DNA of 50,005 nt from an uncultured Treponemataceae bacterium. GTDB taxonomy: Bacteria > Spirochaetota > Spirochaetia > Treponematales > UBA12059. The stretch spans positions 1 through 50,005 of the forward strand of contig CAZNNA010000001.1 in the NCBI GenBank assembly GCA_964573825.1. The letters run 5' to 3'. Positions 9,681 to 36,537 of the stretch are shown here, piece by piece. Each line of letters starts with the position of its first letter. Positions within the stretch are counted from its first letter, which is position 1. The position numbers and the translations under genes are program-made. Under the pieces are notes generated by a model. The model was not told where the DNA came from. It saw nothing but the letters and a program-made list of their open reading frames with translations, and searched no databases.

Positions 9681-10904
9681 CTAGCGCGCGCTCGCCCCTG
9701 CCTTTCCCGCAGCCGCGCCGCTGGCCGCTCCGTTGGCCGCCACCCTCGCCAGGGTCTCGTAGACCGTCGATACGCTCGACTTGCGGAGCATGTAGTAGTC
9801 CTTGCCGGCCTCCTTGCAGTCCTTCTTGACCCGAAGGCAGGCGGCGTGGCTGTTGACGTCCACGGGACAGAGCACGACGTCCGCCTGGCTGATGAGCGAG
9901 GGTAGTTCCTGGCTGTGGCAGTCCCCGTCGTGGTAGAGGAAGGAGCCGTTCATCTTGTTGACGACGTCGCGGTAGAAGCCCTTGAGCCTATCGAGGCCTC
10001 CGACCACGAGGACCCGGCGCTCGCAGAGGTCGCAGCCGAGACCGTCGGCCTGGCGGACCTTTCCGGAGTGGCAGGAGGTGCCACCATCCGGAGAGGCGAG
10101 GCAGCCGAGCGCGCAGGCGCCTCGCGCGGCCCGGGCTCGCGCCACCGCGGAGAAGAAGGCGTCCATATCGCGCTTGGCCTCGAGGCGCCACTCGTTCTCG
10201 TGCCGTTCAATGGCCTGGAGGCGCCTGACCTCGTCGCGGAGGGCGAAGGCCTCGCGCCTCAGGGCCTGGGCCTCCGCCTCGAGGGCTTCGTTCTGGGCCC
10301 TGAGCGCCGAGGCGTCCGTACCGGCTGCGGGCCTCGCCGGCTCGGCTCGTACGGAACAGCTGACTCGGTGAAGCTTCTCGAGTTCCTTCTGGGTATCCTT
10401 AAGCCGTCGCCTGTAATCATCCCTGGCCGCGGCTAGCCTTTCCTCGCGCTTCGCGGCTGCCGCTAGCTCCGCCTCGGCGCGCTCGAGCTCGTCCCTCAGG
10501 GAGTGCGCGTACATATGGACGAGGCCGTAGAGCCTATCGTTTTCCTTTTTACCGAAGCGCGCGTACTTGGCCGTGATCCAGATGAAGGCGCCGTAGCCCG
10601 TCGCGCAGAGCAGCTCCTCCACCGCGGCCAACCACGAGCCGAGCTCGACGTGGCGCGCCCGGTCGAGCTCCTTGGCGTGCTTGGCGTCCAGGAGTCGCTC
10701 CACGCGAGAGGCGGCCGCGCCCTCCCGTACGCCTAGCTCCTTGACGAGCCATTCATGGAGGGCGATGCCTTCGAGGCGCGGCGCGGGGGCCGCTACTGAC
10801 CGTCGGTGGACGCTCCTCCGCTCTTCCTCGCTCAGGCAGAATCCTACTATCGGACAGAAGTAGGCTCGGTCTATGTCCCATATCCGTCTCTCCGCCTCTA
10901 GCAT
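9681..10904 (-). CDS. DUF2325-like protein with central coiled coil and Cys-rich segment
   Basis: C-terminal VLVVGGLDRLKGFYRDVV...VVLCPVDVNSHAA...KKDCK resembles DUF2325 (from memory). Preceded by the Cys cluster CALGC...C...CDLC. AAGGAGAG RBS before the ATG at 10904; the ORF-track GTG at 10925 is less likely. Confidence 0.75.
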   Translation of the reverse strand: MLEAERRIWDIDRAYFCPIVGFCLSEEERRSVHRRSVAAPAPRLEGIALHEWLVKELGVREGAAASRVERLLDAKHAKELDRARHVELGSWLAAVEELLCATGYGAFIWITAKYARFGKKENDRLYGLVHMYAHSLRDELERAEAELAAAAKREERLAAARDDYRRRLKDTQKELEKLHRVSCSVRAEPARPAAGTDASALRAQNEALEAEAQALRREAFALRDEVRRLQAIERHENEWRLEAKRDMDAFFSAVARARAARGACALGCLASPDGGTSCHSGKVRQADGLGCDLCERRVLVVGGLDRLKGFYRDVVNKMNGSFLYHDGDCHSQELPSLISQADVVLCPVDVNSHAACLRVKKDCKEAGKDYYMLRKSSVSTVYETLARVAANGAASGAAAGKAGASAR

Positions 10905-10953
10905 CGCTCTCTCCTTGCTTGACACGGGTAGTCCGTGCGGGTATCATAAGAAT

Positions 10954-11000: not shown

Positions 11001-11435
11001 ATGAGCGTACTTAAGGTTATCTACTGGAGCGGTACGGGTAATACCAAGGCCATGGCCGAGGCCGTGGCCAAGGGGGCCCGGGCGGCGGGCGCGACCGCCC
11101 AGCTGCTCGACGTCTCCGGCGTCGACGCGGCCAAGGCCCTGGAGGCCGACGCCTTGGCCCTGGGTTGCCCCGCGATGGGCGCGGAGGTGCTCGAGGAGGC
11201 TGAGATGGAACCCTTCGTCTCGGCGCTCGAGTCCGCCGGCCTCGGAGGCAAGCGCCTCGGGCTCTTCGGCTCCTATGACTGGGGCGACGGTCAGTGGATG
11301 CGCGAGTGGAAGGAGCGTATGGAGAAGGCCGGCGCGTCGGTGCTCGGCGAGGGCGTCATGGCCAACAACGCGCCCGACGCGGCGGCCCTCGGCGCCTGCG
11401 AGGCCCTGGGCGCGGCCCTGGCCGGAAAGGCCTAG
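11001..11435 (+). CDS. short-chain flavodoxin
   Basis: VIYWSGTGNTKAMAE FMN phosphate-binding loop, LGCPAMG and FGSYDWGDGQWM. Collinear with clostridial flavodoxins. AAGGAG RBS at 10988-10993. Confidence 0.95.
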   Translation: MSVLKVIYWSGTGNTKAMAEAVAKGARAAGATAQLLDVSGVDAAKALEADALALGCPAMGAEVLEEAEMEPFVSALESAGLGGKRLGLFGSYDWGDGQWMREWKERMEKAGASVLGEGVMANNAPDAAALGACEALGAALAGKA

Positions 11436-11440
11436 GCCCC

Positions 11441-12070
11441 ATGACGGAAGGCGCGGTCCCGGACCGCCTGGGCATCGAGCTCTACTATGCGCTCGATGCC
11501 TTGCCCGCGGAGGAGCATCTGTTCTCACTCATTGCGTATCATGGCGCGCCTACCGTCTCCGGGCTCAAGCCCGCGACGATGCTCTGCTTCGGGAATGGCC
11601 GCAAGGCCCTCCTGGACGCCTGGCGCGCGCGCGGCGCCTCCGCCTGCGCTGAGCTCGGGTTGGCTTGCACCGAGCTGCGCGGCGGAGAGACCGGTATCAA
11701 CGTCCTGCTCTATAGGGCCGGGGCTCTCCTCGGCGCCCTGGAGGAGCCCGAGGCGACGGCCTTGCTCCGGGAGCAGGGCTACGACGTTCCCGCCTCGCTC
11801 GAGCGCTACCTCGAGCGCCTCTCGTTCCGCTTCGCGGATGCGTGCCCGCACGAGGTCGGCGTCTTCCTGGGTATCCCCGCGGAGGACGTGCGCGGCTTCA
11901 TGCGGCACGGCGGCATGAATTGCCATTTCTGCAGCTATTGGAAGGTGTACCACGAGCCAGAGGCCGCCCGGGAGCGCTTCGCGCGCTTCGACGAGGCTCG
12001 CCGGGCGGTGGGCCGGGCCATACTCGCCGGTAGGCTCCGCGCCCCCTGGGCGGAACGAGCGAGCGCCTAA
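11441..12070 (+). CDS. DUF3793-like protein
   Basis: GAPTVSGLKPATM...CPHEVGVFLGIPAEDVRGF...C.FCSYWKVY resembles DUF3793, which I recall as often flavodoxin-adjacent. The ORF-track N-terminal extension overlaps the flavodoxin gene and is rejected. Confidence 0.7.
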   Translation: MTEGAVPDRLGIELYYALDALPAEEHLFSLIAYHGAPTVSGLKPATMLCFGNGRKALLDAWRARGASACAELGLACTELRGGETGINVLLYRAGALLGALEEPEATALLREQGYDVPASLERYLERLSFRFADACPHEVGVFLGIPAEDVRGFMRHGGMNCHFCSYWKVYHEPEAARERFARFDEARRAVGRAILAGRLRAPWAERASA

Positions 12071-12897
12071 TGAGCATACGCAAGCTGGCCGTCTACGGTA
12101 AGGGCGGTATAGGAAAGTCCACCACGGTCTCCAATCTCTCGGCGGCGCTCGCCGTGGCGGGGTATAGGGTCATGCAGATCGGCTGCGATCCCAAGTCCGA
12201 TTCCACGACCAACCTCCTGGGCGGCGAGCGCATGGCGACGGTGCTGGACGCCATGCGCGGCTCGCGCTCGGTGGTCCTTAAGGACATCGTCAGGGAGGGG
12301 TTCGGAGGCGTCCTCTGCGTCGAGGCGGGCGGACCGACGCCAGGCATAGGCTGCGCCGGGCGCGGCATCATAGCGGCCTTCGAGAAGCTCGAGGAGCTCG
12401 ACGCCTTCGGCCGCTATCGGCCGGACGTCGTCCTCTACGACGTACTCGGGGACGTCGTCTGCGGCGGCTTCGCCATGCCCATGCGCAGGGGCTACGCCGA
12501 CGAGATCGTCATAGTCAGCTCGGGCGAGATGATGGCGCTCTACGCGGCCGGCAACATCGCCGGAGCGCTGCGGAACTTCCAGGGACGGGGCTACGCGACG
12601 CTCCGGGGCCTCGTCCTCAATCGACGCAACGTCGATGACGAGCGGGCCCTAGTGGAGCGCGCGGCGTCGGAGATGGGCGCCTCCATAGTCGGCGAGGTGC
12701 CGCGCTGCGGCCTCGTGCAGGAGGCCGAGGCCGAGGGCAAGACCGTGGTCGAGCGCTTTCCCGATAGCGACATGTGCGCCGTCTATCGAGCCCTGGCCCT
12801 CGAGCTCGTGGAGGTAGAGGCCGCGCCTCAGGCCGCGCCTCAGGCCGCGCCTTTGAGCGCGCCTTTGGGCGACGGCTCCGGGGAGCTCGCCTCATGA
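12070..12897 (+). CDS. NifH/BchL/CfbC-family ATP-dependent reductase component (nitrogenase iron protein-like)
   Basis: Walker A YGKGGIGKST, switch I CDPKSDST, and both 4Fe-4S ligand contexts GIGCAGRGI and YDVLGDVVCGGFAMPMR. C-terminal AAPQ/AAPQ/AAPL/SAPL tail. TAATG overlap with the upstream gene. Confidence 0.95.
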   Translation: MSIRKLAVYGKGGIGKSTTVSNLSAALAVAGYRVMQIGCDPKSDSTTNLLGGERMATVLDAMRGSRSVVLKDIVREGFGGVLCVEAGGPTPGIGCAGRGIIAAFEKLEELDAFGRYRPDVVLYDVLGDVVCGGFAMPMRRGYADEIVIVSSGEMMALYAAGNIAGALRNFQGRGYATLRGLVLNRRNVDDERALVERAASEMGASIVGEVPRCGLVQEAEAEGKTVVERFPDSDMCAVYRALALELVEVEAAPQAAPQAAPLSAPLGDGSGELAS

Positions 12898-14243
12898 GGG
12901 CCGACGCCACCGACGAGATGACCATAGGGCGGCTGGCCGGCGATCCGGGGCGGGTCCTGGGCACGGAGGCCTCCGATTCCACGCTCCACTACTGCTCTCC
13001 GGCCCACGGAGGCTGGGGCGTCGTACGGACGGCCCTCCTCGTGCCCGAGACCTACCTGCTCTTCGCCTGCCCCGCGGCCTGCGGTCGCCACGGCGCCATA
13101 GCCGCCATCGAGCAGGGTTACAAGGACCGGGTCGGCTACCTCTGCCTGGAGGAGGACGAGATAGTCCTCGGCGGCTACGAGCCCGAGATCGAGCGCGGGG
13201 TCGGCGAGGCGCTCGCGGCCCTCAAGGCGGCCGGCCGAGCCCCCCGGGCCCTGATGCTCTGCGTGAGCTGCATAGACGACCTCCTGGCTACCGACCATGA
13301 GGCCGCCCTGGCGAGGCTGGAGGCCGAACACGGCCTGCCCGTCCGCCTGGCCCGCATGAACCCCATCATGATCGACGGGAAGCTGCCGCCGGCCCAGCGC
13401 ATCCAGCGGACCATGTACGAGTTCCTCGAGCCCGCGACTGATCGCGACGACGGCGTCCTCCTCCTCGGGAGCTTCGTTCCGCCGGCCCGCTCTTCCGAGC
13501 TCGCCCGCCTCGTCTCCGCCCTGGGCCTCGGGCCGCTGCGCCATCCGTCCTTCTACGATAGCCTCGAAGAGTTCCGCGCCTCGGCGAGAAGTCGCCGGGC
13601 CTTGGTCCTCCGGCCGGAAGGCGCCGCGGCGGCCGCCTATGCGGAGGAGCGGCTCGGGATTTCCTGCCTGGCCGCGCCGGTGGCCTATAGCGAGGCCCTC
13701 GTGGCCGAGCGGTATCGGGCGATCGTCGACTTCCTCCTGCCCGTGGGCGCCGAGCGCGCCCTGGCCTTGGCCCTGGCGAGGCGAGGGGCCGAGGAGGCGG
13801 CCGCGGCGGCGGAGCGCGCGGCCCGCGCCCTCCTGGGCGCGCGGGTGGCTGTCGACTCGACGGTCAGCGCCTCTCCCTTCGACCTGGCCCTGGCCCTGGT
13901 CGAGGCCGGCGTCGACGTCGAGCGGATCTACGCCGAGCGCCTCCCCGCCCATGAACGAGCCTCCTTCGATCGCCTGGCCAGGCTGAGGCCAGGCCTCGTC
14001 GTCTCCAACCCGAGTCACATGAGGCGCCATGCCGGGCGGCCCGAGCGGCCCCTGGCGGACCTGGCCCTGGGCTTCGCCGCCGCCTACGCCTCCGGCGCGC
14101 CTCGGACGGTGCCCCTGGCCTTCGACGAGGGGCTCTACGGCTACGAGGGCAGGCGCCTCGTCATGGAGGCCCTCGAGGCGGCCAGCGCCGGGGACGCGCC
14201 TGACCTGGAGAGCCAGGTGCGCGACTACGGGCTCGTCGTATGA
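12894..14243 (+). CDS. nitrogenase component-1 type oxidoreductase, NifD/NifE/BchN-like subunit
   Basis: ATGA overlap with the nifH-like stop. Cys pattern YCSPAHG-x25-FACPAAC-x(63/66)-LCVSC is spaced like the NifD/NifE cluster ligands. General Oxidored_nitro-like layout. Confidence 0.8.
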   Translation: MRADATDEMTIGRLAGDPGRVLGTEASDSTLHYCSPAHGGWGVVRTALLVPETYLLFACPAACGRHGAIAAIEQGYKDRVGYLCLEEDEIVLGGYEPEIERGVGEALAALKAAGRAPRALMLCVSCIDDLLATDHEAALARLEAEHGLPVRLARMNPIMIDGKLPPAQRIQRTMYEFLEPATDRDDGVLLLGSFVPPARSSELARLVSALGLGPLRHPSFYDSLEEFRASARSRRALVLRPEGAAAAAYAEERLGISCLAAPVAYSEALVAERYRAIVDFLLPVGAERALALALARRGAEEAAAAAERAARALLGARVAVDSTVSASPFDLALALVEAGVDVERIYAERLPAHERASFDRLARLRPGLVVSNPSHMRRHAGRPERPLADLALGFAAAYASGAPRTVPLAFDEGLYGYEGRRLVMEALEAASAGDAPDLESQVRDYGLVV

Positions 14244-14256
14244 GAAAGGCGCAGCA

Positions 14257-15474
14257 ATGAGTAGGCTCCTTCAGACCCTGCCGCCCCTGTCGCCCGACTA
14301 CTCGGGCGTGGCCTCGGCCCTGCACGATCTCGGCGCGCTCACGGTCATCCACGACGCCTCGGGCTGCACCGGCACCTACGCCGGCTACGACGAGCCGCGC
14401 TGGTTCGGCAGCCGGAGCCCGGTCTTCTGTTCGGGTCTACGGGACCTGGACGCGGTCATGGGCGACGACGAGAAGCTCCTTTCCAAGCTTCGCCTGGCCG
14501 CTGCCGAGGCGCGGCCGCCCCTGGCGGCGGTGGTCGGGAGCCCCGTGCCCATGGTGGTGGGCTTCGACTTCCAGGGCTTCGCCGCGCTGGCCGAGCGCGA
14601 GACGGGCGTACCGACCCTCGGCTTCCCGGCCAACGGCCTCGGGCTCTATGACGACGGGCAGCGGGCGGCCTACGCGGCCCTCTTCGAGCGCTTCCTTCCC
14701 GACGGGATCCCGCGCGAGCCGCGGACCGTCAACCTGCTCGGCGCCTCGGCCCTCGACGGCTTCGATGACGAGGCCCTGGACCTGCTCGAGGCCCTGGCTT
14801 CCGAGGCCGGGCTCCGGCGCCTGGCCGTCTGGGGCGCCCGCTCGCCGCTCTCGGAGCTTACGAGGAGCGGGGCGGCCGCGGTCAATTGGGTCGTGACGGC
14901 CGCGGCCCTGCCCTTGGCCAGGCGGCTCCGCGAGCGCTACGGCACGCCCTTCGTCGTAGGGCTGCCCATAGGCTCCCGCGAGCGCAGGCGCCTGCTGGCA
15001 GAGCTGGCCGCTATCGGGGGCTCGGTCGGAGCGCCTCTTATGGCCAGGGAGAGGGAAGGGGAGACCCTGGCCGACGCTCGGGACGGCGAGGCCGCTCGCT
15101 CGGCGCGCCGCCGGGTCCTGGTCGTCGGCGAGCGGCTGCTCTGCGAGTCCCTGAGAGCCTGGCTCGAGGGCGAGCTCGGCCTCGGGCCCGTCGCGGTCGC
15201 CGGCTTCTTCTCCGACGACCCGTACTACGCCCGCAGAGGTTATAAAAAATATATAACAGAAGCCGAGGCCTCGAACGCGCTCCGCGAGCCGGGCCTCGAG
15301 CTCGTCATAGGGGATCCGCTCCTTTCGGGCCTCCTATCTTCGGCTCGCCTCGTACCCCTGCCGCACGCGGCCCTGTCGGGCCGCCTCTACCGGGAATCCC
15401 GCTCCCGCCTCTTCGAGGCGCGGGGCCTTGCATCGTTAACGTCTCTCCTAGGAGGTTCTCATGATTACGCATAG
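14257..15474 (+). CDS. nitrogenase component-1 type oxidoreductase, NifK/NifN/BchB-like subunit
   Basis: Starts at MSRLLQTLPPLSPDYSG. Contains HDASGCTG...VFCSGLRDLDAVMG. The third canonical Cys position reads GSPVPMVVG (no Cys). Confidence 0.75.
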   Translation: MSRLLQTLPPLSPDYSGVASALHDLGALTVIHDASGCTGTYAGYDEPRWFGSRSPVFCSGLRDLDAVMGDDEKLLSKLRLAAAEARPPLAAVVGSPVPMVVGFDFQGFAALAERETGVPTLGFPANGLGLYDDGQRAAYAALFERFLPDGIPREPRTVNLLGASALDGFDDEALDLLEALASEAGLRRLAVWGARSPLSELTRSGAAAVNWVVTAAALPLARRLRERYGTPFVVGLPIGSRERRRLLAELAAIGGSVGAPLMAREREGETLADARDGEAARSARRRVLVVGERLLCESLRAWLEGELGLGPVAVAGFFSDDPYYARRGYKKYITEAEASNALREPGLELVIGDPLLSGLLSSARLVPLPHAALSGRLYRESRSRLFEARGLASLTSLLGGSHDYA

Positions 15475-16560
15475 GACGGCCCCACGGCTCGCCCTCGTCA
15501 CCCTGCTCCTGGCCGCGGCCCTGGCCTCGGCCTTCGGGCAGGCGGGCCGGGCCGCTACCCGCGCCATAGTCGACCAGACCGGCGCCACGGTCGTCATTCC
15601 CGCCAAGGTGGAGCGGGTGGTCATCACCTCGCTCTGGCCCCTGCCCTCGGTCTTCTGCCTGGTCGACGGCTCCGGCAAGCGCCTCGTCGGCATGCATCCC
15701 GCCTCGCTCAGCGCGGCCAAGACCTCGATGCTGGCCAAGACGACGCCCTCAAGGCCTCGACCTCCTTCATGAAGGGCAGCTCGCTCAATATCGAGGAGCT
15801 CCTTAAGCTACGCCCCGACGTGGTGCTCTACAGCGCCGTCAATACCGGGGAGCGCGAGCTGCTCGAGAAGGCCGGGCTCAAGGCCGTAGGCTTCAGCACG
15901 ACGGTGGCCGAGTTCAACACCCTGGAGACGGTCGTCTCCTGGATGGATCTCCTCGGAGAGATCCTGGACAAGAAGACTCGTGCCGAGGATATCAAGCGCT
16001 ACGGCTACGAGGCCCTCGGCTCTATCTATTCCCGGACCTGGAACCTCTCCGACGCTAAGAAGCCCCGGGCGCTCATACTCTTCCGCCATAGCGATAAGGA
16101 GATTGTCGCCACGGGCAGTAACTTCTTCGGCGACTTCTGGCTACGCTCCACCGGCGCCATCAACGTGGCGGCCTCGCTCAAGGGCAACCAGCCGGTCAAC
16201 ATGGAGCAGGTCTACGCCTGGAACCCCGATATCATCTACGTGACCAATTTCAGCGCCTCCCTGCCCGAGGACTTCTACGCGGGCAAGATAGGGGGCCAAG
16301 ACTGGAGCAAGGTCGCGGCGGTCAGGAACCGCAAGGTCTACAAGTCGCCGCTCGGCCACTATCGCTGGTTCCCGCCGAGCTCCGACGCCCCGCTCATGCT
16401 GCTCTGGATGGCCACCAAGAATCAGCCGGAGCTGTTCAAGGACGTCGACTTCGAGCGGCGCCTCCGCGACTACTTCCTTCGCTTCCACGACTACCGCCTG
16501 AGCGACGAGGACATACGCTCCATCCTCAATCCGCCGCGCGAGGCCGCCGACGGTGTTTGA
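15461..16560 (+). pseudogene. periplasmic binding protein of the FecB/BtuF/HmuT class (Peripla_BP_2-like), interrupted by a frameshift near 15740
   Basis: The N-terminal part (signal peptide, ...VVITSLWPLPSVFCLVDG...HPASLSAAKTSMLAK) is in one frame. The continuation ...DALKASTSFMKGSSLNIEELLKLRPDVVLY... is in the frame of ORF 15769..16560. Together they make one normal-length binding protein. Confidence 0.75.
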
Positions 16561-17620
16561 TCCCGGTCCGGGCACGGCCGCCGGGGTCGCCGCCGGGCGG
16601 CGGTCCCGGGCGCCCGCCCTCGTCCTGGCCTTCGCCCTCCTCGGGCCCCTGGCCGTCGCCTGCCTCGGCCTCGGGCGGCTCTGGGTTCCGCCCTCGCGCA
16701 TCGTGGGCATCCTGGCGGCCAGGGCGGCTCCGTCCCTGGCTCCGACCGAGCCGGCCTGGGCCGACTTCGAGGAGGCGGTCATCATGAACGTTCGCCTGCC
16801 GCGCATCCTCATGGCCATGCTCGTGGGCGCCGGGCTCGCCCTGGCGGGAGGCGCCTTCCAGGGCCTCTTCGCCAACCCGCTGGCCACGCCCGATACCCTC
16901 GGCGTGGGGGCGGGCGCCTCCTTCGGCGCCGCCTTGGGCATACTGCTGTCGGAAAGCTTCCTCGTCGTGCAGGCCTGCTCCCTCGGCATGGGCCTCGTCG
17001 CCATGGGCCTGACCTATGCCGTCAGCAAGGTCAAGGAGCGCCGCTCCGTCCTCATGATTGTGCTGTCGGGCATAGTGACCGGCGCCTTCTTCCAGGCCCT
17101 CATCTCCCTCACCAAGTATGTGGCCGACCCGGAGACCAAGCTCCCGGCCATCACCTACTGGCTCCTCGGCAGCATAGCCGACGTGTCCTACGCCAGCATC
17201 GCCATGGGCGCGCCCGCCATCATCCTCGGCATGGCCGTCATCGTGGCGCTCCGCTGGCGGCTGGATATCCTCTCCCTGAGCGACGACGAGGCGTGGTCCC
17301 TGGGCCTCAACGTGCCAGTCCTGCGCTGGGCCGTCATAGGCGCCTCCACGCTTATCACCGCTTCCGCCGTGTCGCTCTGCGGCCAGGTCGGCTGGGTCGG
17401 CCTCGTCGTGCCGCACGCGGCCAGGATGATCGTGGGCAGCGACCACAGGACCATGATCCCGATGAGCGCGGCGCTCGGCGCCGGCTTCCTCCTCGTCGTC
17501 GACACCTTCGCGCGCTCGGCCACGGCCGCGGAGATACCGCTGTCCATCCTGACCGCCATGATAGGGGCCCCGTTCTTCGCGGCCCTCCTCAGGAAGACCC
17601 AGGGGGGCGCATGGAGCTGA
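16553..17620 (+). CDS. FecCD/BtuC-family ABC permease
   Basis: About 10 hydrophobic segments with typical FecCD sequence (RLPRILMAMLVGAGLALAGGAFQGLFANPLATPDTLGV). GTG start overlaps the upstream stop. Confidence 0.9.
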   Translation: MFDPGPGTAAGVAAGRRSRAPALVLAFALLGPLAVACLGLGRLWVPPSRIVGILAARAAPSLAPTEPAWADFEEAVIMNVRLPRILMAMLVGAGLALAGGAFQGLFANPLATPDTLGVGAGASFGAALGILLSESFLVVQACSLGMGLVAMGLTYAVSKVKERRSVLMIVLSGIVTGAFFQALISLTKYVADPETKLPAITYWLLGSIADVSYASIAMGAPAIILGMAVIVALRWRLDILSLSDDEAWSLGLNVPVLRWAVIGASTLITASAVSLCGQVGWVGLVVPHAARMIVGSDHRTMIPMSAALGAGFLLVVDTFARSATAAEIPLSILTAMIGAPFFAALLRKTQGGAWS

Positions 17621-18411
17621 GCTTTCGCGTAGAGGACGGCGCGTTCTGGTACCGCAGCGACCGGGTCCTGTTTTCCGGAGTCGGCTTCGAGCTCGGGCGC
17701 GGCGAGATAGCCGCCATACTCGGCCCCAACGGCGTCGGCAAGACGACCTTCCTGCGCTGCGCCATGGGCCTTCTCCCGTGGCGCCGGGGCCGCTCGACCC
17801 TGAACGGCCGCGACGTCCGGAGCCTGGCCCCGGGGGAGCTCTGGAGGATGGTGGCCTACGTGCCCCAGGCCCGGGCCCTGCCCTTCGCCTTCTCGGTCAT
17901 GGACGTGGCGCTGATGGGGCGGAGCGCCCACCTAGGGGCCTTCTCCCAGCCGGGTCCCGACGACCGGCGCCTGGCGGAGGCGGCGCTCGAGCGCATGGGC
18001 GTGCTTAGGCTCCGCGACAGGCCCTTCGCCGAGCTGAGCGGCGGAGAAGCCCAGATGGTCTTCATCGCCCGGGCCCTGGCGGCCCGCCCCCGGCTCATCG
18101 TCCTCGACGAGCCCGAGTCCCACCTGGACTTCCGTAACCAGCTCGTCATCCTGGGGGCGCTCCGGGATCTGGCCCGCGAGGAGGGCATAGCCTGCGTAGT
18201 CAATACGCACTTTCCCGAGCACGCGCTCCGGATAGCCGATAGGGCGCTGATCCTCGGCAAGGACGGGGCCGGCCACCGCTTCGGCCAGGCCGATGACCTC
18301 ATGGACGAGGAGACCCTCGAGGCCTTCTTCGGCGTACGCGTACGCCGACTGGATTTCTCCGACTCGGGCGAGCCGTACCGCGCGATCTATCCCCTGGAGC
18401 CCGTATGCTGA
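17611..18411 (+). CDS. ABC transporter ATP-binding protein (FepC/FecE/BtuD-like)
   Basis: Walker A GPNGVGKTT, signature LSGGEAQM and Walker B LIVLDEPE. Start overlaps the permease stop. Confidence 0.9.
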   Translation: MELSFRVEDGAFWYRSDRVLFSGVGFELGRGEIAAILGPNGVGKTTFLRCAMGLLPWRRGRSTLNGRDVRSLAPGELWRMVAYVPQARALPFAFSVMDVALMGRSAHLGAFSQPGPDDRRLAEAALERMGVLRLRDRPFAELSGGEAQMVFIARALAARPRLIVLDEPESHLDFRNQLVILGALRDLAREEGIACVVNTHFPEHALRIADRALILGKDGAGHRFGQADDLMDEETLEAFFGVRVRRLDFSDSGEPYRAIYPLEPVC

Positions 18412-19298
18412 GCCCCCGCCCCCGCGACGATTCCGCCCGCCTCTTCGCCGACCTGCGGGCCGGAACGCGCCTTAGGGTCCTCGTGGCCCCCGTAGCCCAG
18501 GCGCGCCTCCCTGAGTTTAACCGTTTCCTCGGCTACCTGCGTTCCCTCGGCGCGCTCTCCTTTCATGCCGTGCTGCCCCGGGCGGATATAGCCGCCTGGC
18601 TGTATTATAGAACGATTACTAAAAGCGATTCTCCCCTCATAGCCTCGGCCTGCGCCGGCGTGACGAGCGGACTCCGGGCGCGGGAGCACCCGGCCCTGCG
18701 TTACCTGCCGCCCATACCGAGCCCCCTCCTCTGCACGGCCATCTACCTGCGGCGCTACCTCGGCTACCGCGAGCCCTTCGCCTTTCTCTCGCCCTGCGCC
18801 CTCAAGTGGACGGAGTTCTCGCCCGGAGGCGTCGAGCTCGTCAGGTACAACGCGACCATACGCGGCATCAAGGCTCGGCTCGAGGCCGAGGGCGTGGACC
18901 TGGGGAGGTTTCCGGAGCTTTACCTGGACGACGAATCGAGGGGCTTGACCGTAGGCGCCTTCGGCGAGCTGGGCGCCTCCCTCGGCGCGGTCCTACCGGG
19001 CCTACGCTGCCTTACGTCGCACGGCCTCGGGCGCTCCCTGGCCCTGCTCGACGATCCCGCGCGCTTTCCCGGCGTCGAGGCCGAGGCCTTGGATCTCCTG
19101 GAACCCTACGCCTGTCCCGCCGGCTGCGACGGGGGCTCCGGCGTCGGGACCTGCGAGGATTGCCCCATGAAGGATGGCGCTCCCGCCTCCTCGCCGGCTC
19201 CGCGTCCTCGCCCCACGAGGGAGGAGCTTCTAGCCCTCTTCGCTCGTATGGACGACGAGCTTCGCTCGGAGGATTTTATCTACGGCTCGGTCGTGTGA
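18405..19298 (+). CDS. minimal [FeFe]-hydrogenase H-domain-like protein (Fe_hyd_lg_C-like) without accessory cluster domains
   Basis: Collinear with the H-domain of the window's own HydA. VAPVAQARL aligns with IAPAVRVAL, IASACAG with FTSCCPAW, PSPLLCTAIYLRR with MSPQAMMGSIIR, LSPCALKWTE with MPCVAKKYE, and YACPAGCDGGSG with MACPGGCVGGAG. Confidence 0.7.
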   Translation: MLSPRPRDDSARLFADLRAGTRLRVLVAPVAQARLPEFNRFLGYLRSLGALSFHAVLPRADIAAWLYYRTITKSDSPLIASACAGVTSGLRAREHPALRYLPPIPSPLLCTAIYLRRYLGYREPFAFLSPCALKWTEFSPGGVELVRYNATIRGIKARLEAEGVDLGRFPELYLDDESRGLTVGAFGELGASLGAVLPGLRCLTSHGLGRSLALLDDPARFPGVEAEALDLLEPYACPAGCDGGSGVGTCEDCPMKDGAPASSPAPRPRPTREELLALFARMDDELRSEDFIYGSVV

Positions 19299-21494: not shown

Positions 21495-23246
21495 TTAGGC
21501 CTCAGGCCTGACCTTCCAGGCATGGGCCTTGCGCTGCTCGTTCCACATGGCCGCGTAGGCGCGGCCCGCTGTCAGGAGCTCTTCGTGACGGCCGCGCTCG
21601 GCTATGCGCCCTTCCTTTAGGACGATGATCTGGTCGGCCCTGGTCACGGTGCTCAGGCGGTGCGCTATCACGATGATCGTGCGGCCCTTGATGAGCTCCG
21701 CTATGGCTTCCTGGATATAGAGTTCGTTCTCCGGGTCGAGCGAGGCCGTGGCCTCGTCCAGGAGCACGATGGGCGCGTCCTTGAGTATGGCCCTGGCTAT
21801 GGAGACGCGCTGCTTCTCGCCGCCTGACAGCGTCGATCCTCCCTCGCCGACCATGGTGTCGTAGCCGTCGGGCAGAGCCGCGATGAAGTCGTGGCAACGG
21901 GCCTGTTTGGCGGCCGCTATGACCTCCTCTATGGTGGCGTCCTTCCTGCCGACGCGTATGTTGGCCAGGATGCTGTCGTTGAAGAGGTAGACGTCCTGGA
22001 AGACCATGCTGACGCTGGCGAGGAGGTCGTCCGTGCGATACTCCGATAAGGGACGGCCGCCGACGAGTACCGAGCCTTCGTTGGTATCCCAGAAGCGCGC
22101 GATGAGTCGAGTTATAGTAGATTTTCCCGACCCTGACGGGCCCACGAGGGCGGTCATGCTGCCCTCGGGTACCGAGAAGCTGATGTTTTTTAGTACGTCC
22201 GTATCGTGGTAGCGGAAGCCGACGCCTCGGAATTCTATGTCGTGACGCTCGGGCGCCGATCCCCGGTCGGGCTCCGGCAGGGGCTTGGTCGCGAAGATGT
22301 CCCGGAGCCTCCGCGCTGATATGGCGTAGTACGATAGCTCGGCGAAGCCTATGAGCACCTTGCTGAGCGGGTCGTACATGCGCGTCCCGACTATCAGGAA
22401 GAAGAGGAAATTCGGCACGGAGAGGCTGCCGTCGACCACGAAGCGGGAACCCGCGAGCATGATCAGGGCCACGCCGGTATAGAGCACGAGCACGCCGAAG
22501 ATCACCGACGGGCCGCTCGAGCCCTCGAGCAGTATGCTCTTCTTCTTCAGATCGACGAAGGAGCGCTCCAGGCGCTGGAATTTATCTCCCTGTAGGTTGT
22601 GGGCCTTGATATGCTTCATGCCGTCCAGGTACTCGAGCATGCGGGACGCCGCCTCGTTCTTGGCCTTGACGTGCTTGGCGCCCAGGAAGGACACGAGGGC
22701 GCGCGAGCCGAGCGCCGCCAGGATCGAGAGCGGTATGGGGGCGAGCGCGATGAGCGTCATGCGCCAGTCTATAGGCAGTAGGAAGGCCGCGAAGACGAGG
22801 GGCAGGGTGAAGGAGCCTATGGCGTCCATGAAGAGGTGGCTGAGCATCGTCTCGACGTTGCCGTAGTCCTGGAGCATCAGCGCCGTAATGTCGCCCGGGT
22901 CTCGGCCCTTGAAGAAGCCCATGGGCAGGCGGCGCAGGTGCTCGCCCAGGGCCAGCCTGCCCTCGCAGGAGAGGGAATAGGCCCCGATATTCTCGACGTT
23001 GTAGGAGGCCCTGCCGACCAGGAAGAGTAGCGCCAGGGACGCGGCGAGCCAGGCGCACAGCCAGGCTAGGGCCTGGACGTCGAGGGCGGTTCCCGGGCTT
23101 GAGAGCGGCTTGAGTAACTCTAGGATAACCATGAGTATGATGAAGTAGGGTTGCCCCTGGAGCATCGACTTGAGGACCTGGAGCCCCAGCGGCTTCCAGA
23201 GCGCCCCGGGCTTGCCGTTGGTTATCGTGTTGAGGAAGCGTTTCAT
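21495..23246 (-). CDS. ABC transporter, fused permease/ATPase half-transporter (B-type, second copy)
   Basis: Six-TM N-terminal domain. GPSGSGKST, LSGGEKQR, LLDEATASLD and VIAHRL. Start at MKRFLN overlaps the upstream stop (ATGA). Confidence 0.9.
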   Translation of the reverse strand: MKRFLNTITNGKPGALWKPLGLQVLKSMLQGQPYFIILMVILELLKPLSSPGTALDVQALAWLCAWLAASLALLFLVGRASYNVENIGAYSLSCEGRLALGEHLRRLPMGFFKGRDPGDITALMLQDYGNVETMLSHLFMDAIGSFTLPLVFAAFLLPIDWRMTLIALAPIPLSILAALGSRALVSFLGAKHVKAKNEAASRMLEYLDGMKHIKAHNLQGDKFQRLERSFVDLKKKSILLEGSSGPSVIFGVLVLYTGVALIMLAGSRFVVDGSLSVPNFLFFLIVGTRMYDPLSKVLIGFAELSYYAISARRLRDIFATKPLPEPDRGSAPERHDIEFRGVGFRYHDTDVLKNISFSVPEGSMTALVGPSGSGKSTITRLIARFWDTNEGSVLVGGRPLSEYRTDDLLASVSMVFQDVYLFNDSILANIRVGRKDATIEEVIAAAKQARCHDFIAALPDGYDTMVGEGGSTLSGGEKQRVSIARAILKDAPIVLLDEATASLDPENELYIQEAIAELIKGRTIIVIAHRLSTVTRADQIIVLKEGRIAERGRHEELLTAGRAYAAMWNEQRKAHAWKVRPEA

Positions 23247-25105
23247 TCTCGATCCTTCGCCTTTCCGGCCGGGGCCGCCGCTTTCTCGAGCTCCCAGCCG
23301 CGCGCCTTGATATGCACGTCCCACATGCCGCGATAGAGGCCGCCCCGCGCCACGAGCTCCTCGTGCGTTCCCGCCTCGGCTATGCGTCCCTTGTCTATGA
23401 CGAGGATGGCGTCGGCGTCGGTGATGGTGTAGAGGCGGTGGGCTATGATGATGACCGTCTTGCCCTGTAGCACCACGGAGAGGGCCTCCTGGATCCTGGC
23501 CTCGTTCTCGGGGTCGGCGTAGGCCGTGGCCTCGTCCAGGACCACGATGGGCGCGTCCTTGAGTATGGCCCGCGCCAAGGCCACGCGCTGTTGTTCCCCG
23601 CCCGATAGGTGGGTGCCGCCTTCGCCTATGCGGGTCGCGTAGCCCTTGGGTAGGCCCTCGATGAAGTCGTGGATCTGCGCCGCCTTGGCGGCCTTGACGA
23701 CCTCGTCGAAGGAGGCCGCAGCGTTACCCATGTGTATATTCTCTTCTATGGTGTCGAAGAAGAGGAACACGTCCTGGAATACGGTGGAGACCATGTCGTT
23801 GAGCCGCGCCACCGGGATGTCCCGGACGTCGACGCCGCCTATGCGTACGGCGCCGGCGCCCACGTCCCAGAATCGGCCGGCTAGGTTGGCTATCGTCGTC
23901 TTGCCGCCGCCCGAGGGCCCCACGAGGGCGGTGACCGTACCGGGCCTCGCGGCGAATGACACGTCCTTGAGTATGTCCGTGTCGCCGTAGGCGAAGGAGG
24001 CGCGGTCGAACTCGACCGAGGCGTCGGCTGGCGTCTTGGGCGAGGATGGCTCGGGAAGCTCGGGGGCCTCGAGGATGTCGTCGATGCACGACAAGCCGGT
24101 CTCTATCTGCCTGGTCAGGGCGGCCAGCCTCATGAGCTTATAGAGGGGTACCGCGATGCCCATGCCCACGTAAAGGAAGAGGAACGTCGTTGAGACGAGC
24201 GTAGCGTAGGCAGGGCCTTCGGCGGAGCGTAACACCAGTATCGCTATCGGGACGACGAAGAGGGCGCTCGAGGATAGGACGGTGAGGAAGCCCGTGAACG
24301 ACGTGGCCGAGACGCGTATCCAGTGTATGGTCAGGTCCCGATAGGCGTAGACGTCGTCGGCGAAGCGCTTGAAGGCGTTGACGCTCTGGTTGAAGACCTT
24401 GACGACGCTCATGCCTCGTATGTACTCGACGATGGTGCCGTTCATCGCCCCGAGCCGCGCCTGCCATTGCTCGTAAAGGCCCATGGACCCTTTGCTGAAC
24501 ATCGACGACTGGGCGATCATGGCGAGGGGCAGGGGAATGGCCACGCCGAGCGCTAGGCGCCAGTCGACGATGAAAAGGGCTACGAGCGTACCGATAGGCA
24601 AGACCGCAGCCTGCACGATATCGATGATGTGGTGGGCCACGAAGAGCTCGATGCGCTCCACGTCATCCGATAGTACCTTCTTGATGCCGCCGTTGGTTCG
24701 CGTGGTGAAGTAGCCCATGGGCAGGCGCGCCAGCTTGGCAGCCAGGGCCTTCCTGATCTCGTAGAGAATATTAAATGCTGCTACGTGGGACATCATGCCG
24801 GCCGCGTAGGTGATGGCGCCGAAGGCCGCCACGCCGCCTATCGTCAGCCAGCCTAGGCGAGCTACGTAGTCCATCCTGATGGCTGCCGGCGCGGTTATGT
24901 TGGCTACGAGCTCCTGGACGAGTAGGAATATCGTGACGTAGGGCGTCATCTGCGCAGCCACGGCCACGATGCCGAGGAGCGAGGCCGCGACGAGGAGCGG
25001 CGCCTTGGTCCCGGCTATCTCGAGGAGCCTGGCTACGCCTTTCTTGCGTCTTGCCTTGAGTTGTGCCTCGAATATCGAGGCGTCCGCCTTGATGGAGTCT
25101 TTCAT
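23243..25105 (-). CDS. ABC transporter, fused permease/ATPase half-transporter (A-type, second copy)
   Basis: GPSGGGKTT, LSGGEQQR, VVLDEATAYAD and IIAHRL. AAGGAGGAG RBS. Confidence 0.9.
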   Translation of the reverse strand: MKDSIKADASIFEAQLKARRKKGVARLLEIAGTKAPLLVAASLLGIVAVAAQMTPYVTIFLLVQELVANITAPAAIRMDYVARLGWLTIGGVAAFGAITYAAGMMSHVAAFNILYEIRKALAAKLARLPMGYFTTRTNGGIKKVLSDDVERIELFVAHHIIDIVQAAVLPIGTLVALFIVDWRLALGVAIPLPLAMIAQSSMFSKGSMGLYEQWQARLGAMNGTIVEYIRGMSVVKVFNQSVNAFKRFADDVYAYRDLTIHWIRVSATSFTGFLTVLSSSALFVVPIAILVLRSAEGPAYATLVSTTFLFLYVGMGIAVPLYKLMRLAALTRQIETGLSCIDDILEAPELPEPSSPKTPADASVEFDRASFAYGDTDILKDVSFAARPGTVTALVGPSGGGKTTIANLAGRFWDVGAGAVRIGGVDVRDIPVARLNDMVSTVFQDVFLFFDTIEENIHMGNAAASFDEVVKAAKAAQIHDFIEGLPKGYATRIGEGGTHLSGGEQQRVALARAILKDAPIVVLDEATAYADPENEARIQEALSVVLQGKTVIIIAHRLYTITDADAILVIDKGRIAEAGTHEELVARGGLYRGMWDVHIKARGWELEKAAAPAGKAKDRE

Positions 25106-25121
25106 TGGATTAATCTCCTCC

Positions 25122-26534
25122 TTAATCCGCTACCGCGATCGGCGCGGCTGTCGATCCCGTTTCCGCTTCCGGCGCGCCGTTCGTGGCTACCCGGGCGCCG
25201 AGGCGCTTGAACTCCGCGAGCACCATGACGAGGGCCAGGAGCACCACCACGGTGTCTATGGCCAGGGAACCTCGGTAGACCCATCCGAGCCCGAAGCGGG
25301 CGGGGACCATGAGCATGACCGGTACGTAGAGGAAGAGCTGGCGCGCTAGTCCCATCATCGCGGCGGGGCCTCCCTTGCCCATGGCGGGATAGAGCGTCAT
25401 GACCATGAAGACGAGGGGCAGCAGCGGAAGGACTGCGATCATGATCCTATAGTTGGCAAGATCTCCCGCCGAGAAGACCGAACCGGGCATCATGAAGCCG
25501 AGGACCGGGGAGGCGAAGGCCGTCAGCGCGGCCCAGAAGGGCACGACGAGGATGGTGGCTATGCCAAGGAAGGTCCAGAAACCGGTCTTGACCCTGTCGT
25601 AGCGGCCGGCGCCGAAGTTAATGCCGACGACCGGCTGGAGCGCCCGCATGAGGCCGAAGATGGGCGTCAGCATGAAGGTCATCAGCCTGAGCGAGGCGCC
25701 GTAGAAGGCGATGTCGAAGCTACCGCCGAGTCGCGATATGACGTTGAAGATTATGGCGCCCTGGATCAGGGTCATGATCGACATGATGAGCGAGGACGAG
25801 CCTGTCGACATGATCTTACCCGCTATCGCCTTGCTCATGCCTATGGCGAAGGGCTTGGCCTCGAACGAGGCCTTGCCTGAGGCCAGGTAGCGGAGTCCTA
25901 CGATGCTGTAGACGAGCATGCCCACGTTGGTGCCCCAGGCGGCGCCCGCGACGCCGAGGCCCAAGGGGCCCATGAAGAGGTAGTTGCAGGCTATGTTGAC
26001 GACGAGCCCGGAGCCCATCATTAATGCGGCCTTGCCCATGCGTCCCTCCGCGCGGACGACCATGTTGACGCCGAGGCCGTGAACGGTGAAGGGCAAGCCC
26101 ACGAGCATGAGCCTGAAGTACCGGAGCGCATGGTCGAGCACCTCTCCCGAGGCGCCCATGAGCCCGAGGAAGGGCTCGGCGATGAGGAGGAGTACGGCTA
26201 TCGCTCCGGCCGAGATGGCCAGCGATAGGCCGTTCAGGTTGGCTATGACCCGCTCCTGCGTCCGCTTGTCTCTCGCCCCTATCGCTATCGAGAGCACCGA
26301 GCCCGCCCCTACGCCGACGAGGGCTCCGAAGCCCATGGCGAAGCTGGTCAGGTTGCCCGCTATGCTGACGCCCGCCAAGGCCGACTCTCCGCAGTAGCGA
26401 CCGACGAAGACCGCGTCCATGACGCCGTTGAAGCCGTAGAGTAGCATGGCGATGATGGCGGGCGGCGATAGCCGCCAGGCCACCTTCCAGAGGCTGTCTC
26501 CCAGGATCATGCGTCGTTGAGTATCAGTATCCAT
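25122..26534 (-). CDS. MATE family efflux transporter
   Basis: 470 aa with about 12 hydrophobic helices and a typical MATE N-terminus (LWKVAWRLSPPAIIAMLLYGFNGVMDAVFVGR). AAGGAGAG RBS. Confidence 0.9.
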   Translation of the reverse strand: MDTDTQRRMILGDSLWKVAWRLSPPAIIAMLLYGFNGVMDAVFVGRYCGESALAGVSIAGNLTSFAMGFGALVGVGAGSVLSIAIGARDKRTQERVIANLNGLSLAISAGAIAVLLLIAEPFLGLMGASGEVLDHALRYFRLMLVGLPFTVHGLGVNMVVRAEGRMGKAALMMGSGLVVNIACNYLFMGPLGLGVAGAAWGTNVGMLVYSIVGLRYLASGKASFEAKPFAIGMSKAIAGKIMSTGSSSLIMSIMTLIQGAIIFNVISRLGGSFDIAFYGASLRLMTFMLTPIFGLMRALQPVVGINFGAGRYDRVKTGFWTFLGIATILVVPFWAALTAFASPVLGFMMPGSVFSAGDLANYRIMIAVLPLLPLVFMVMTLYPAMGKGGPAAMMGLARQLFLYVPVMLMVPARFGLGWVYRGSLAIDTVVVLLALVMVLAEFKRLGARVATNGAPEAETGSTAAPIAVAD

Positions 26535-26555
26535 GGTTCTCTCTCCTTATCGTGT

Positions 26556-28337: not shown

Positions 28338-28353
28338 GGGTGTCTCCTATCGT

Positions 28354-35382: not shown

Positions 35383-35413
35383 GGCCCGGCGGCTAGGCTC
35401 GGTTCTCGGGTAG

Positions 35414-36514: not shown

Positions 36515-36537
36515 CCCCGCTCGCTCCGGTAAGCTAG

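Follow-up and report, generated by a model that had tools for sequence, protein, structure and literature searches.

The 50,005-nucleotide stretch of DNA analyzed here (the window; contig CAZNNA010000001.1 of an uncultured Treponemataceae bacterium) contains an operon for nitrogenase-like (NFL) proteins (NflH, NflD, and NflK, together NflHDK) and an ATP-binding cassette (ABC) importer. The last conserved gene of this operon encodes a stand-alone H-domain protein of 297 amino acids (aa), which we designate HydL. The preliminary description of the window had likened this protein, motif by motif, to the H-domain of the [FeFe]-hydrogenase HydA encoded in the same stretch. The translation of the open reading frame (ORF) at 18405–19298 on the forward strand includes LIASACAGV, FAFLSPCALKWTEF, and EPYACPAGCDGGSGVGTCEDCP, and thus all the motifs quoted there.

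HydL is an H-domain homolog

HydL matches the Pfam family Fe_hyd_lg_C (PF02906) over residues 41–244 (E = 3.6e-6; 27.2 bits with a gathering cut-off of 22.1), and its relatives score 55–110 bits. This hidden Markov model (HMM) search was the check proposed in the preliminary description, and the homology is significant. Pairwise BLAST of HydL with the HydA of the window aligned the CxxxC segment alone; single-sequence comparison is therefore too weak, and profiles are needed. When a profile of 19 HydL homologs was compared with the PDB, T. maritima HydA (7p5h_A) ranked first (E = 3.5e-15), followed by CpI, CrHydA1, DdHydAB, and CbA5H, and all matches at E ≤ 3.1e-5 (43 of the 44 listed) were [FeFe]-hydrogenases. 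The AlphaFold2 model built with that alignment has a predicted local distance difference test score (pLDDT) of 88.7 and a predicted template-modeling score of 0.88. In the Foldseek comparison of this model with the PDB, the best 50 matches were all [FeFe]-hydrogenases (probability, 1.00; query-normalized template-modeling (TM) score, 0.58–0.69). HydL is a genuine Fe_hyd_lg_C/H-domain homolog and not a chance similarity, and the likeness to the HydA H-domain is borne out by the Pfam, PDB profile, AlphaFold2, and Foldseek results.

The Pfam scan of the window protein gave no Fer4 match, in agreement with the reported absence of ferredoxin-like accessory domains, and its translation contains no cysteine in residues 1–82, that is, before C83. 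Such a stripped H-domain had been called unusual, but the archaeal group E enzymes, which consist of an H-domain of about 286 aa only, are already an active precedent (PMC11216029). The GC content of the window is 64–71%, and the window protein also occurs in two SRA assemblies.

Active-site residues

Conservation was analyzed over 35 sequences; the protein search supplied 19 of them, and 16 were taken from genome loci. Residues were mapped to CpI numbering by reading the profile alignments against the PDB (Table 1). One of the three printed alignments (7p5h) has a two-residue insertion before Pro-Cys; in the CpI alignments, S129 corresponds to Met353. Thirty positions are invariant over the 35 HydL sequences, which come from two phyla and share 31–60% identity. 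Among them are S81, C83, S106, P107, C110, S129, P130, C131, K134, E137, E233, Y235, C237, G240, C241, G244, and G246, as well as F279 and L286 of the C-terminal helix. Invariant positions across two phyla exclude a chance ORF or a decaying relic.

The four H-cluster cysteines (Cys300, Cys355, Cys499, and Cys503) are present in the L1/L2/L3 spacing together with Lys358. As had been stated, these cysteines (C83, C131, C237, and C241) are conserved, and the lysine and glutamate (K134 and E137, equivalent to Lys358 and Glu361) are kept; all are invariant in 35 of the 35 sequences. The clade retains all [4Fe-4S]H and bridging ligands plus the Lys358, Glu361, Pro231, and Pro324 positions. The replacement of the proton-relay cysteine and of both methionines, also claimed previously, is seen in the profile alignment at A82, S129, and Y235. 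The group A features, a TSCCP motif with Cys299 and the residues Met353 and Met497 framing the diiron site, are absent from HydL, which has A82, S129, and Y235 there. The group C/D feature, Cys299 replaced (mostly by Ala) and Met353 replaced (by Ser or Thr in group D), is present as A82 and S129. Position 82 is Ala in 20 and Pro in 15 of the 35 sequences and is never Cys. The Gln325 and Ser232 positions are also replaced.

C110, a fifth cysteine that the preliminary description does not mention, is present in all 35 sequences, but two additional members of the HydL clade have Ala at this position. It is common to most sensory-type relatives (Ala or Ser in some) and missing from group A. C110 is unlikely to be an obligatory ligand because Ala or Ser occupies its site in some clade members and sensory relatives, and a role as a fifth cluster ligand is unsupported. 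The additional C-terminal CxxC (C249 and C252) noted in the preliminary description is real in the window protein, but it is lineage-specific. Column counts in the alignment show it in this protein and its two closest relatives only, and it was rejected as a feature of the family. The pLDDT is 53–63 for residues 250–270, the region of this motif.

Relatives and phylogeny

A word-indexed protein search gave 21 HydL relatives. The named ones were from termite-gut spirochaetes (Breznakiella homolactica, Treponema metagenome-assembled genomes (MAGs), and Spirochaetia MAGs), and in GTDB species genomes, further relatives with 32–38% identity were detected in Sporomusa, Pelosinus, Propionispora, and other Negativicutes. 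The HydL clade is small and was detected in Spirochaetota and Negativicutes only.

An HMM search of 1.84 billion representatives gave 2108 matches at E ≤ 1e-3 and 395 at E ≤ 1e-30, and the best 150 of the 2108 were examined. About 20 of these 150 are HydL-like proteins of 195–544 aa (several truncated and one a fusion), with the signature S-[AP]-C-A … SPLxC … SPC..K..E … E-x-Y-x-C..C. The T. primitia ZAS-2 protein AEF84207.1, annotated as "conserved hypothetical protein," is HydL-like. Almost all the other matches among the 150 have E-values of 1e-67 to 1e-47 and are mostly 550–1700 aa long. All ten of the long relatives that were scanned contain Fer4 and the H-domain. Most of the ten then carry the PF04060 "FeS" motif, PAS, and an output domain (methyl-accepting chemotaxis protein (MCP), GGDEF/EAL, SpoIIE phosphatase, or histidine kinase), the domain arrangement by which putative sensory [FeFe]-hydrogenases are defined. 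The signature of the multidomain relatives is Q-P-C-P … SPxxC … SPC..K..E … D-x-L-x-C..C, and they share with HydL the Ser at Met353, the SPxxC motif, and the C-terminal helix.

The HydL profile scored E ~1e-60 against the multidomain signaling proteins and ~1e-15 against group A. In a neighbor-joining tree of 171 sequences, rooted on the group A6 HydA of the window and built without bootstrap and without TmHydS and TamHydS, HydL is monophyletic and sister to the multidomain sensory clade, being neither inside it nor nested in group A. Three sub-branches of HydL are seen: a spirochaete branch without an F-domain, a Negativicutes branch that usually has an N-terminal 2×[4Fe-4S] domain, and a small S-A-C-P/E-x-N branch. 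By profile score and by the tree, the nearest relatives are the multidomain signaling hydrogenases rather than Nar1-type or group A proteins. Nor can the substitutions be read as signs against a hydrogenase, as Cys299→Ala and Met353→Ser are typical of the H-cluster-binding groups C and D (PMC10407848, PMC8163306). No description of the HydL clade or of its association with Nfl and importer genes was found in the literature searched.

Linkage to Nfl and importer genes in spirochaetes

The HydL gene lies with genes for NflHDK and an ABC importer at nine of 11 distinct spirochaete loci, in four layouts. The linked genes are those of the window and of L002, L023, L006, L007, L016, L020, L024/L008, L025, and L026 (the L numbers denote the loci compared). 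The gene order of the window is repeated in L002 and L023, and the order is NflHDK–HydL–FecCD–ABC–periplasmic binding protein (PBP) in L006, L007, L016, and L020. In L024/L008 and L025, HydL is convergent to a divergently transcribed importer. In T. primitia ZAS-2 (L026), HydL abuts another importer type, followed by a divergent NflH–NflD pair; here the importer genes code for an SBP_bac_5 binding protein, permeases and ATPases of the Opp/Nik type, a CbiA/ParA-type ATPase, and a membrane protein. No ferredoxin or flavodoxin gene was found in the conserved clusters, where HydL is the sole extra redox protein.

This other importer set stands beside the Nfl genes in T. primitia ZAS-2 (L026:10924–18827) and in Breznakiella (L030:1209–9044). 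Its Opp/Nik-type permeases have fused ATPases, and its membrane protein (580–606 aa) gives faint NicO and weak DsbD_2 matches. These features hint at nickel/cobalt or metallophore uptake.

HydL is unlinked to Nfl at two spirochaete loci, L005 and L001 (B. homolactica). Breznakiella has a full Nfl and double-importer cluster (L030), 1.9 Mb away from its HydL gene. Downstream of the latter and in the same orientation are a FIST/FIST_C gene and a gene for a soluble MCP-signal protein (L001:10001–12975), and by analogy this run resembles a split MCP-linked sensory hydrogenase. The gene position from which a role tied to the nitrogenase-like system had been suggested is thus conserved in relatives, but the linkage is not strict, and each occurs without the other.

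The Negativicutes cassette and Nfl clusters without HydL

All 13 Negativicutes loci have a fixed cassette consisting of a multi-pass membrane protein of ~170 aa, Fer4–HydL, and a soluble protein of ~175 aa, here called dn, and no Nfl genes were found within 10 kb of HydL at any of the 13. At the two annotated loci (L011 and L015), the cassette is located amid genes for TonB-dependent receptors and Crp/Fnr regulators, with a FecCD permease nearby in L011 and an SbmA/BacA-type ABC gene nearby in L015. The membrane protein (L011:9304–9816, L015:3667–4173, and equivalents), which always precedes Fer4–HydL in Negativicutes, has no family match and may be a transporter component or a membrane anchor.

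The dn genes are at L011:10952–11482, L015:5273–5827, L022:9806–11449 (fused), and L029:1657–2184. Two sequences, L022 (547 aa) and P0031 (544 aa), are HydL–dn fusions. A dn homolog is encoded beside the Nfl–TonB–FecCD cluster of Rhodoplanes (BLASTP E = 4e-28, 31% identity over the full length). The dn family has no solid Pfam match. Membership of dn in the FmdE family was considered, but only two of 11 members match, at E = 0.003, and dn was left unassigned. Its PDB profile matches are designed repeat proteins and are spurious.

Orthologs of NflD with 45–62% identity occur in Rhodoplanes elegans, Rhodopseudomonas sp. WA056, a Magnetospirillaceae MAG, and MAGs labeled Accumulibacter and Sulfuritalea, and those with 36–39% identity occur in Clostridium and Tissierellia. 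The three loci inspected, from R. elegans (L029), an uncultured Clostridium (L031), and a betaproteobacterial MAG (L032), all encode NflHDK with a PBP/FecCD/ABC importer and no HydL; the Rhodoplanes cluster additionally has a TonB-dependent receptor. A 180-aa gene at the equivalent position in L032 was considered as a dn or HydL analog, and no homology was found. This importer-linked NFL clade, which spans Spirochaetota, Clostridia, and Alpha- and Betaproteobacteria, appears to be undescribed. Through the HydL–dn, dn–Nfl–importer, and HydL–Nfl–importer links, HydL, dn, NflHDK, and importers are connected pairwise in three phyla. As judged from the gene neighborhoods, the constant element of this network is import via a type II ABC or TonB-dependent system.

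Operon and other genes in the window

The features of the operon and of the HydL gene are listed in Table 1.

Table 1. Positions of the HydL gene, its active-site codons, and the other operon features in the window
Feature	Position	Strand	Assignment and basis
Sigma-70-like promoter match, TTGACA-17-TATCAT	10919–10947	+	11/12; consensus match only, upstream of operon
DUF3793 gene, first of operon	11294–12070	+	Pfam
NflH (NifH-like Fe protein)	12070–12897	+	Fer4_NifH 300 bits; best NCBIfam CfbC 330 bits, below 402-bit cut-off
NflD-like subunit (Oxidored_nitro)	12900–14243	+	Pfam; start approximate, ORF from 12774
NflK-like subunit (Oxidored_nitro)	14257–15474	+	Pfam, ortholog length; start MSRLL inferred, ORF from 14029
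PBP gene (Peripla_BP_2)	15461–16560	+	Pfam; frameshift at about 15700–15770
FecCD/BtuC-type ABC permease	16553–17620	+	Pfam, NCBIfam
ABC ATPase, 266 aa from MELSF	17611–18411	+	Pfam; ORF from 17293
HydL start/ABC ATPase stop overlap, ATGCTGA	18405–18411	+	Sequence read, ORF ends
HydL gene (297 aa)	18405–19298	+	ORF, ATG start; Pfam, PDB profile, AlphaFold2, Foldseek
A28-P29			CpI Ala230-Pro231; profile alignment
A82-C83 codons	18648–18653	+	A82, Cys299 (proton relay); C83, [4Fe-4S]H ligand Cys300
S106-P107-L108-L109-C110 codons	18720–18734	+	S106-P107-L108, Ser-Pro324-Gln325; plus fifth cysteine C110
S129-P130-C131...K134...E137 codons	18789–18815	+	Met353→Ser, Pro, Cys355, Lys358, Glu361; all invariant
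E233-x-Y235-x-C237-x3-C241 codons	19101–19127	+	Glu-x-Met497→Tyr-x-Cys499...Cys503 (bridging Cys)
C249-E-D-C252 codons	19149–19160	+	Extra CxxC; three closest sequences only; low-confidence model region

The overlap of the HydL start with the stop of the ABC ATPase gene suggests translational coupling of the two. HydL, described previously as the last gene of the operon, is its last conserved gene, but an RHS-repeat gene follows 85 nt downstream on the same strand. No homolog of the DUF3793 gene was found in the related loci by tblastn, and the idea that it belongs to the conserved system was rejected. A DUF2325 protein with a coiled coil is encoded divergently from the operon (9681–10925, reverse strand) and was not found in the related loci.

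Three-frame translation places the N-terminal ~95 aa of the PBP, including the signal peptide, in a frame different from that of 15769–16560. The ortholog in L002 is intact (372 aa), and the frameshift could be a sequencing error or mark a pseudogene. The nearest solved relatives of the PBP are 4ovk (unannotated structural genomics), H. influenzae HI_1472 (3psa and 3psh), and the nickel/iron-binding 4ino and 4ls3, and the more distant ones include IsdE and a hemin-binding protein. Candidates for the importer cargo are a metal chelate, a tetrapyrrole, or possibly an oxyanion. The NflD-like subunit has the Cys/His pattern H30-x-C32-x3-H36, C57-x3-C61-x2-H64, C82, and C124 over 119 orthologs, and this CPxxC-containing pattern suggests a distinct cluster site. 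Assignment of the Nfl proteins to the Elusimicrobial group VI is unsupported; a radical-SAM context is the defining feature of that group (10.1101/765248), and none occurs here.

At 39–3121, a NuoF-like subunit gene, cut by the window start, precedes the gene for a 668-aa group A6 HydA of the NADH-dependent type (1115–3121). This bifurcating-type hydrogenase carries a C-terminal thioredoxin-like 2Fe-2S domain. No HydE-, HydF-, or HydG-like domains were found among the large ORFs scanned in the window, consistent with the earlier statement that it holds no hydE, hydF, or hydG, and the presence of a genuine group A6 HydA implies maturase genes in another part of the genome. Four ABC exporter genes (ABC_membrane and ABC_tran) with a MatE efflux gene in the middle of the run are located at 21495–30177 on the reverse strand; in L002, two such exporters stand immediately upstream of NflH. 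Five large and partly overlapping ORFs (395–722 aa) at 33214–40048 have no Pfam match at E ≤ 1e-5. The GC content of this region is ~70%, and some of the five may be spurious.

Proposed function

A role other than bulk H2 metabolism is plausible for HydL. Here, we tentatively propose that HydL is an H-cluster-type redox module that supplies H2-derived electrons to an importer-linked reductive system, a reading to which we give clearly less than an even chance. HydL would bind an H-cluster-type center, comprising a [4Fe-4S] cubane and probably a [2Fe] subsite inserted by HydEFG, whose genes would lie in another part of the genome, and would serve as the redox entry module of the importer-coupled system. 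Slow oxidation of H2 with high affinity, as in the sensory-type enzymes, would supply low-potential electrons. In spirochaetes, these may pass straight from HydL to the NflH Fe protein because HydL, like algal HydA1 and archaeal group E, lacks the F-domain; in Negativicutes, they would travel via the fused 2×[4Fe-4S] domain to the dn partner. The final substrate would be a metal chelate or tetrapyrrole-like compound that the adjacent transporter imports and the system reduces.

Supply of electrons from H2 is favored because the conserved clusters encode no ferredoxin or flavodoxin. It is also favored because the Negativicutes proteins carry an additional electron relay and occur fused to a non-signaling partner, and because the named hosts inhabit H2-rich guts. 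T. primitia ZAS-2, an H2-consuming acetogen, and the termite-gut habitat of its relatives are counted in favor as well. In algal HydA1, an H-domain without an F-domain, the cluster is exposed for docking of a partner. HydL without an F-domain would likewise expose its cluster, as modeled for groups A1 and E (PMC11216029), which is a further point for this mechanism.

Several observations weigh against this proposal. The Nfl–importer clusters of Rhodoplanes, Clostridium, and the betaproteobacterial MAG have no HydL, and HydL is therefore dispensable for the core reaction. HydL shows no obvious proton relay, with Ala or Pro at 299 and, in our reading of the alignment, a hydrophobic residue at the TamHydS Glu252 position. 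Nar1-type proteins keep the same four cysteines and the Lys/Glu pair, yet hold only a [4Fe-4S] cluster, so the ligand pattern cannot prove a [2Fe] subsite. The location of the Breznakiella HydL, 1.9 Mb from the Nfl cluster and adjoining the FIST and MCP genes, favors a sensor. Residue 299 is Ala in the characterized TmHydS and TamHydS but Pro in the nearest multidomain clade, and this mismatch makes the link to the characterized enzymes indirect.

It is possible, though doubtful, that HydL holds the [4Fe-4S] cubane only and acts, like Nar1/NARF, as a carrier of low-potential electrons or of Fe-S clusters for the Nfl proteins, in parallel to Nar1 with the SIMIBI-class ATPases Cfd1–Nbp35. The replacement of the proton-relay cysteine, both methionines, Gln325, and Ser232 with no alternative relay evident fits this carrier, as do the NifH-like ATPases encoded alongside (in T. 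primitia and Breznakiella also a CbiA/ParA-type ATPase) and the lack of maturase genes among the scanned ORFs of the window. However, a Nar1-type N-terminal cluster is precluded by the lack of cysteines before C83, and HydL is sister to hydrogenase-type signaling proteins rather than an independent degenerate lineage. HydL is seen only in anaerobes and not in the proteobacterial Nfl clusters, and its host lineages are known to carry [FeFe]-hydrogenases. The same substitutions are, moreover, compatible with an H-cluster in groups C and D (PMC8163306).

The closest relatives are all signaling proteins and share the C-terminal helix that precedes their FeS/PAS modules, which raises another explanation: HydL would be a domain-less sensor of H2 (or redox state) with an H-cluster, signaling by contact to the ABC ATPase, NflH, or FIST/MCP proteins and tuning uptake, reduction, or chemotaxis to the H2 level. 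We regard this as unlikely. The same-strand FIST and MCP-signal genes after the Breznakiella HydL, like a split MCP-linked sensory hydrogenase, and the Crp/Fnr-type regulators flanking the Negativicutes cassette agree with such a sensor, but HydL has neither an output domain nor the C-terminal Cx2Cx4Cx16C cluster of groups C and D. Translational coupling in a structural operon and fusion to the non-signaling 175-aa protein fit a catalytic or electron-transfer subunit better, and the Negativicutes members have an electron-relay F-domain. Very improbable is an ordinary minimal fermentative hydrogenase, a ferredoxin-linked bacterial counterpart of group E with a meaningless position beside Nfl and importer genes. 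Its size and architecture match those of group E (~286 aa, H-domain only, reported as sister to group C) (PMC11216029), and L001 and L005 are unlinked to Nfl. Against it, the linkage in spirochaetes has persisted through four rearrangements and a change in the type of adjacent importer, Negativicutes have an importer link of their own, Cys299 is lost with no proton pathway, and the organism already has the group A6 HydA for bulk H2 metabolism.

The proposed electron-supplying module has a more specific form, which we consider rather improbable: HydL would be an H2-activating module plugged directly into the ATP-dependent nitrogenase-like reductase, and H2 would run the reduction of the imported metal chelate or tetrapyrrole, e.g., for metal release or remodeling. 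If true, this would be the first hydrogenase–NFL coupling and would offer a way to approach the function of an orphan NFL clade that Spirochaetota share with Clostridia and Proteobacteria. In a 2026 review, the assigned group IV NFL clades are Nfa, CfbCD, MAR, and ISR only, with gene context of little help otherwise, and assigning functions to the orphan NFL proteins is named as a main challenge; ABC transporters are mentioned for sulfonate/taurine uptake only and TonB never (PMC13474568). HydL marks an uncharacterized NFL clade with a BtuCDF/FecCD-type importer as its constant partner and, in diderms, TonB receptors as well. The importer link, HydL as an accessory, and the fused or adjacent 175-aa protein provide testable hypotheses for this orphan clade, and cultured hosts are T. 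primitia ZAS-2, B. homolactica, Sporomusa aerivorans, Pelosinus propionicus, and R. elegans.

Comparison with known hydrogenases and Nar1

With HydL, the [FeFe]-hydrogenase family gains a minimal sensory-type branch from bacteria. The H-domain family and the sensory-type lineage were known, and what is new is the minimal form and the Nfl/importer setting. The active-site shell is unusual in that Ala or Pro replaces Cys299, Ser replaces Met353, Tyr invariably occupies the Met497 position, and a further Cys is conserved. HydL may help to clarify how the H-cluster is tuned by its protein shell and how small an H-domain can be.

Like group C (M2f, TmHydS) and group D (M2e, TamHydS), HydL has the four cluster cysteines, Lys358, and Glu361, a non-protic residue in place of Cys299, and, as in group D, Ser for Met353. 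Cys299 is Ala in TmHydS (A131) and TamHydS (A137), and the group A proton pathway is missing from both (PMC10407848). Met353 and Met497 are replaced by Gly and Ser in TmHydS and by Ser and Leu in TamHydS, Ser or Thr at Met353 being a conserved property of group D (PMC8163306). The two enzymes nevertheless form the H-cluster, with slow H2 turnover and high H2 affinity (PMC8163306, PMC10407848). Since these sensory groups bind the H-cluster with the same substitutions, those of HydL are no argument against it. Groups C and D carry an N-terminal 2×[4Fe-4S] F-domain, which the spirochaete HydL lacks and the Negativicutes branch has, and a C-terminal Cx2Cx4Cx16C motif (PF04060-type), with PAS in group C; HydL has neither of these nor an output domain. 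It has the invariant Tyr where groups C and D have Ser or Leu, and a Glu two residues before the Met497 position in contrast to the Asp of the sensory relatives. In our own reading of the alignment, the position of Glu252, the proposed relay of TamHydS, is occupied by a hydrophobic residue. The HydL gene is found among Nfl and importer genes rather than in a hydrogenase operon, ~15 kb from the group A6 HydA of the window.

The ultraminimal group E enzymes of DPANN archaea are likewise H-domain-only, with ~290 aa and condensed loops, as in the single-domain HydL of 297 aa. Their mean length is 286 residues, their activity has been demonstrated, and group C was given as their sister group (PMC11216029). 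Small size by itself therefore does not preclude catalysis. According to the published description, on which this comparison rests, group E is archaeal and presumed fermentative, with no Nfl/importer context reported (PMC11216029). Five conserved H-cluster cysteines (C1–C5) are labeled in its figures, whereas HydL has no equivalent of Cys299 (PMC11216029).

HydL has the same Pfam domain and cluster-ligand spacing as group A HydA (the A6 enzyme of the window at 1115–3121, and CpI). It lacks the TSCCP cysteine, both methionines, Gln325, the F-domain, and the small-subunit domain, and its H-domain is ~100 residues shorter (TM score, 0.6–0.7).

Nar1/NARF (IOP1) functions in eukaryotic cytosolic Fe-S assembly with P-loop Fe-S ATPases and has the H-domain fold without the [2Fe] subsite. 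Nar1 keeps the four C-terminal cluster cysteines and the Lys/Glu pair, has Ala at Cys299 (SACPGW-type motif), and holds only a [4Fe-4S] cluster. It also has an additional N-terminal Fe-S site of four cysteines, whereas HydL has no cysteine before C83; the Nar1 side of this comparison is by description only. Nar1 is eukaryotic, and the best-scoring relatives of HydL are bacterial signaling hydrogenases. Judged by its residues and domains, HydL is different from all described groups in combining a Tyr at Met497 and a hydrophobic residue at the Glu252 site with the absence of both Cx2Cx4Cx16C and PAS.

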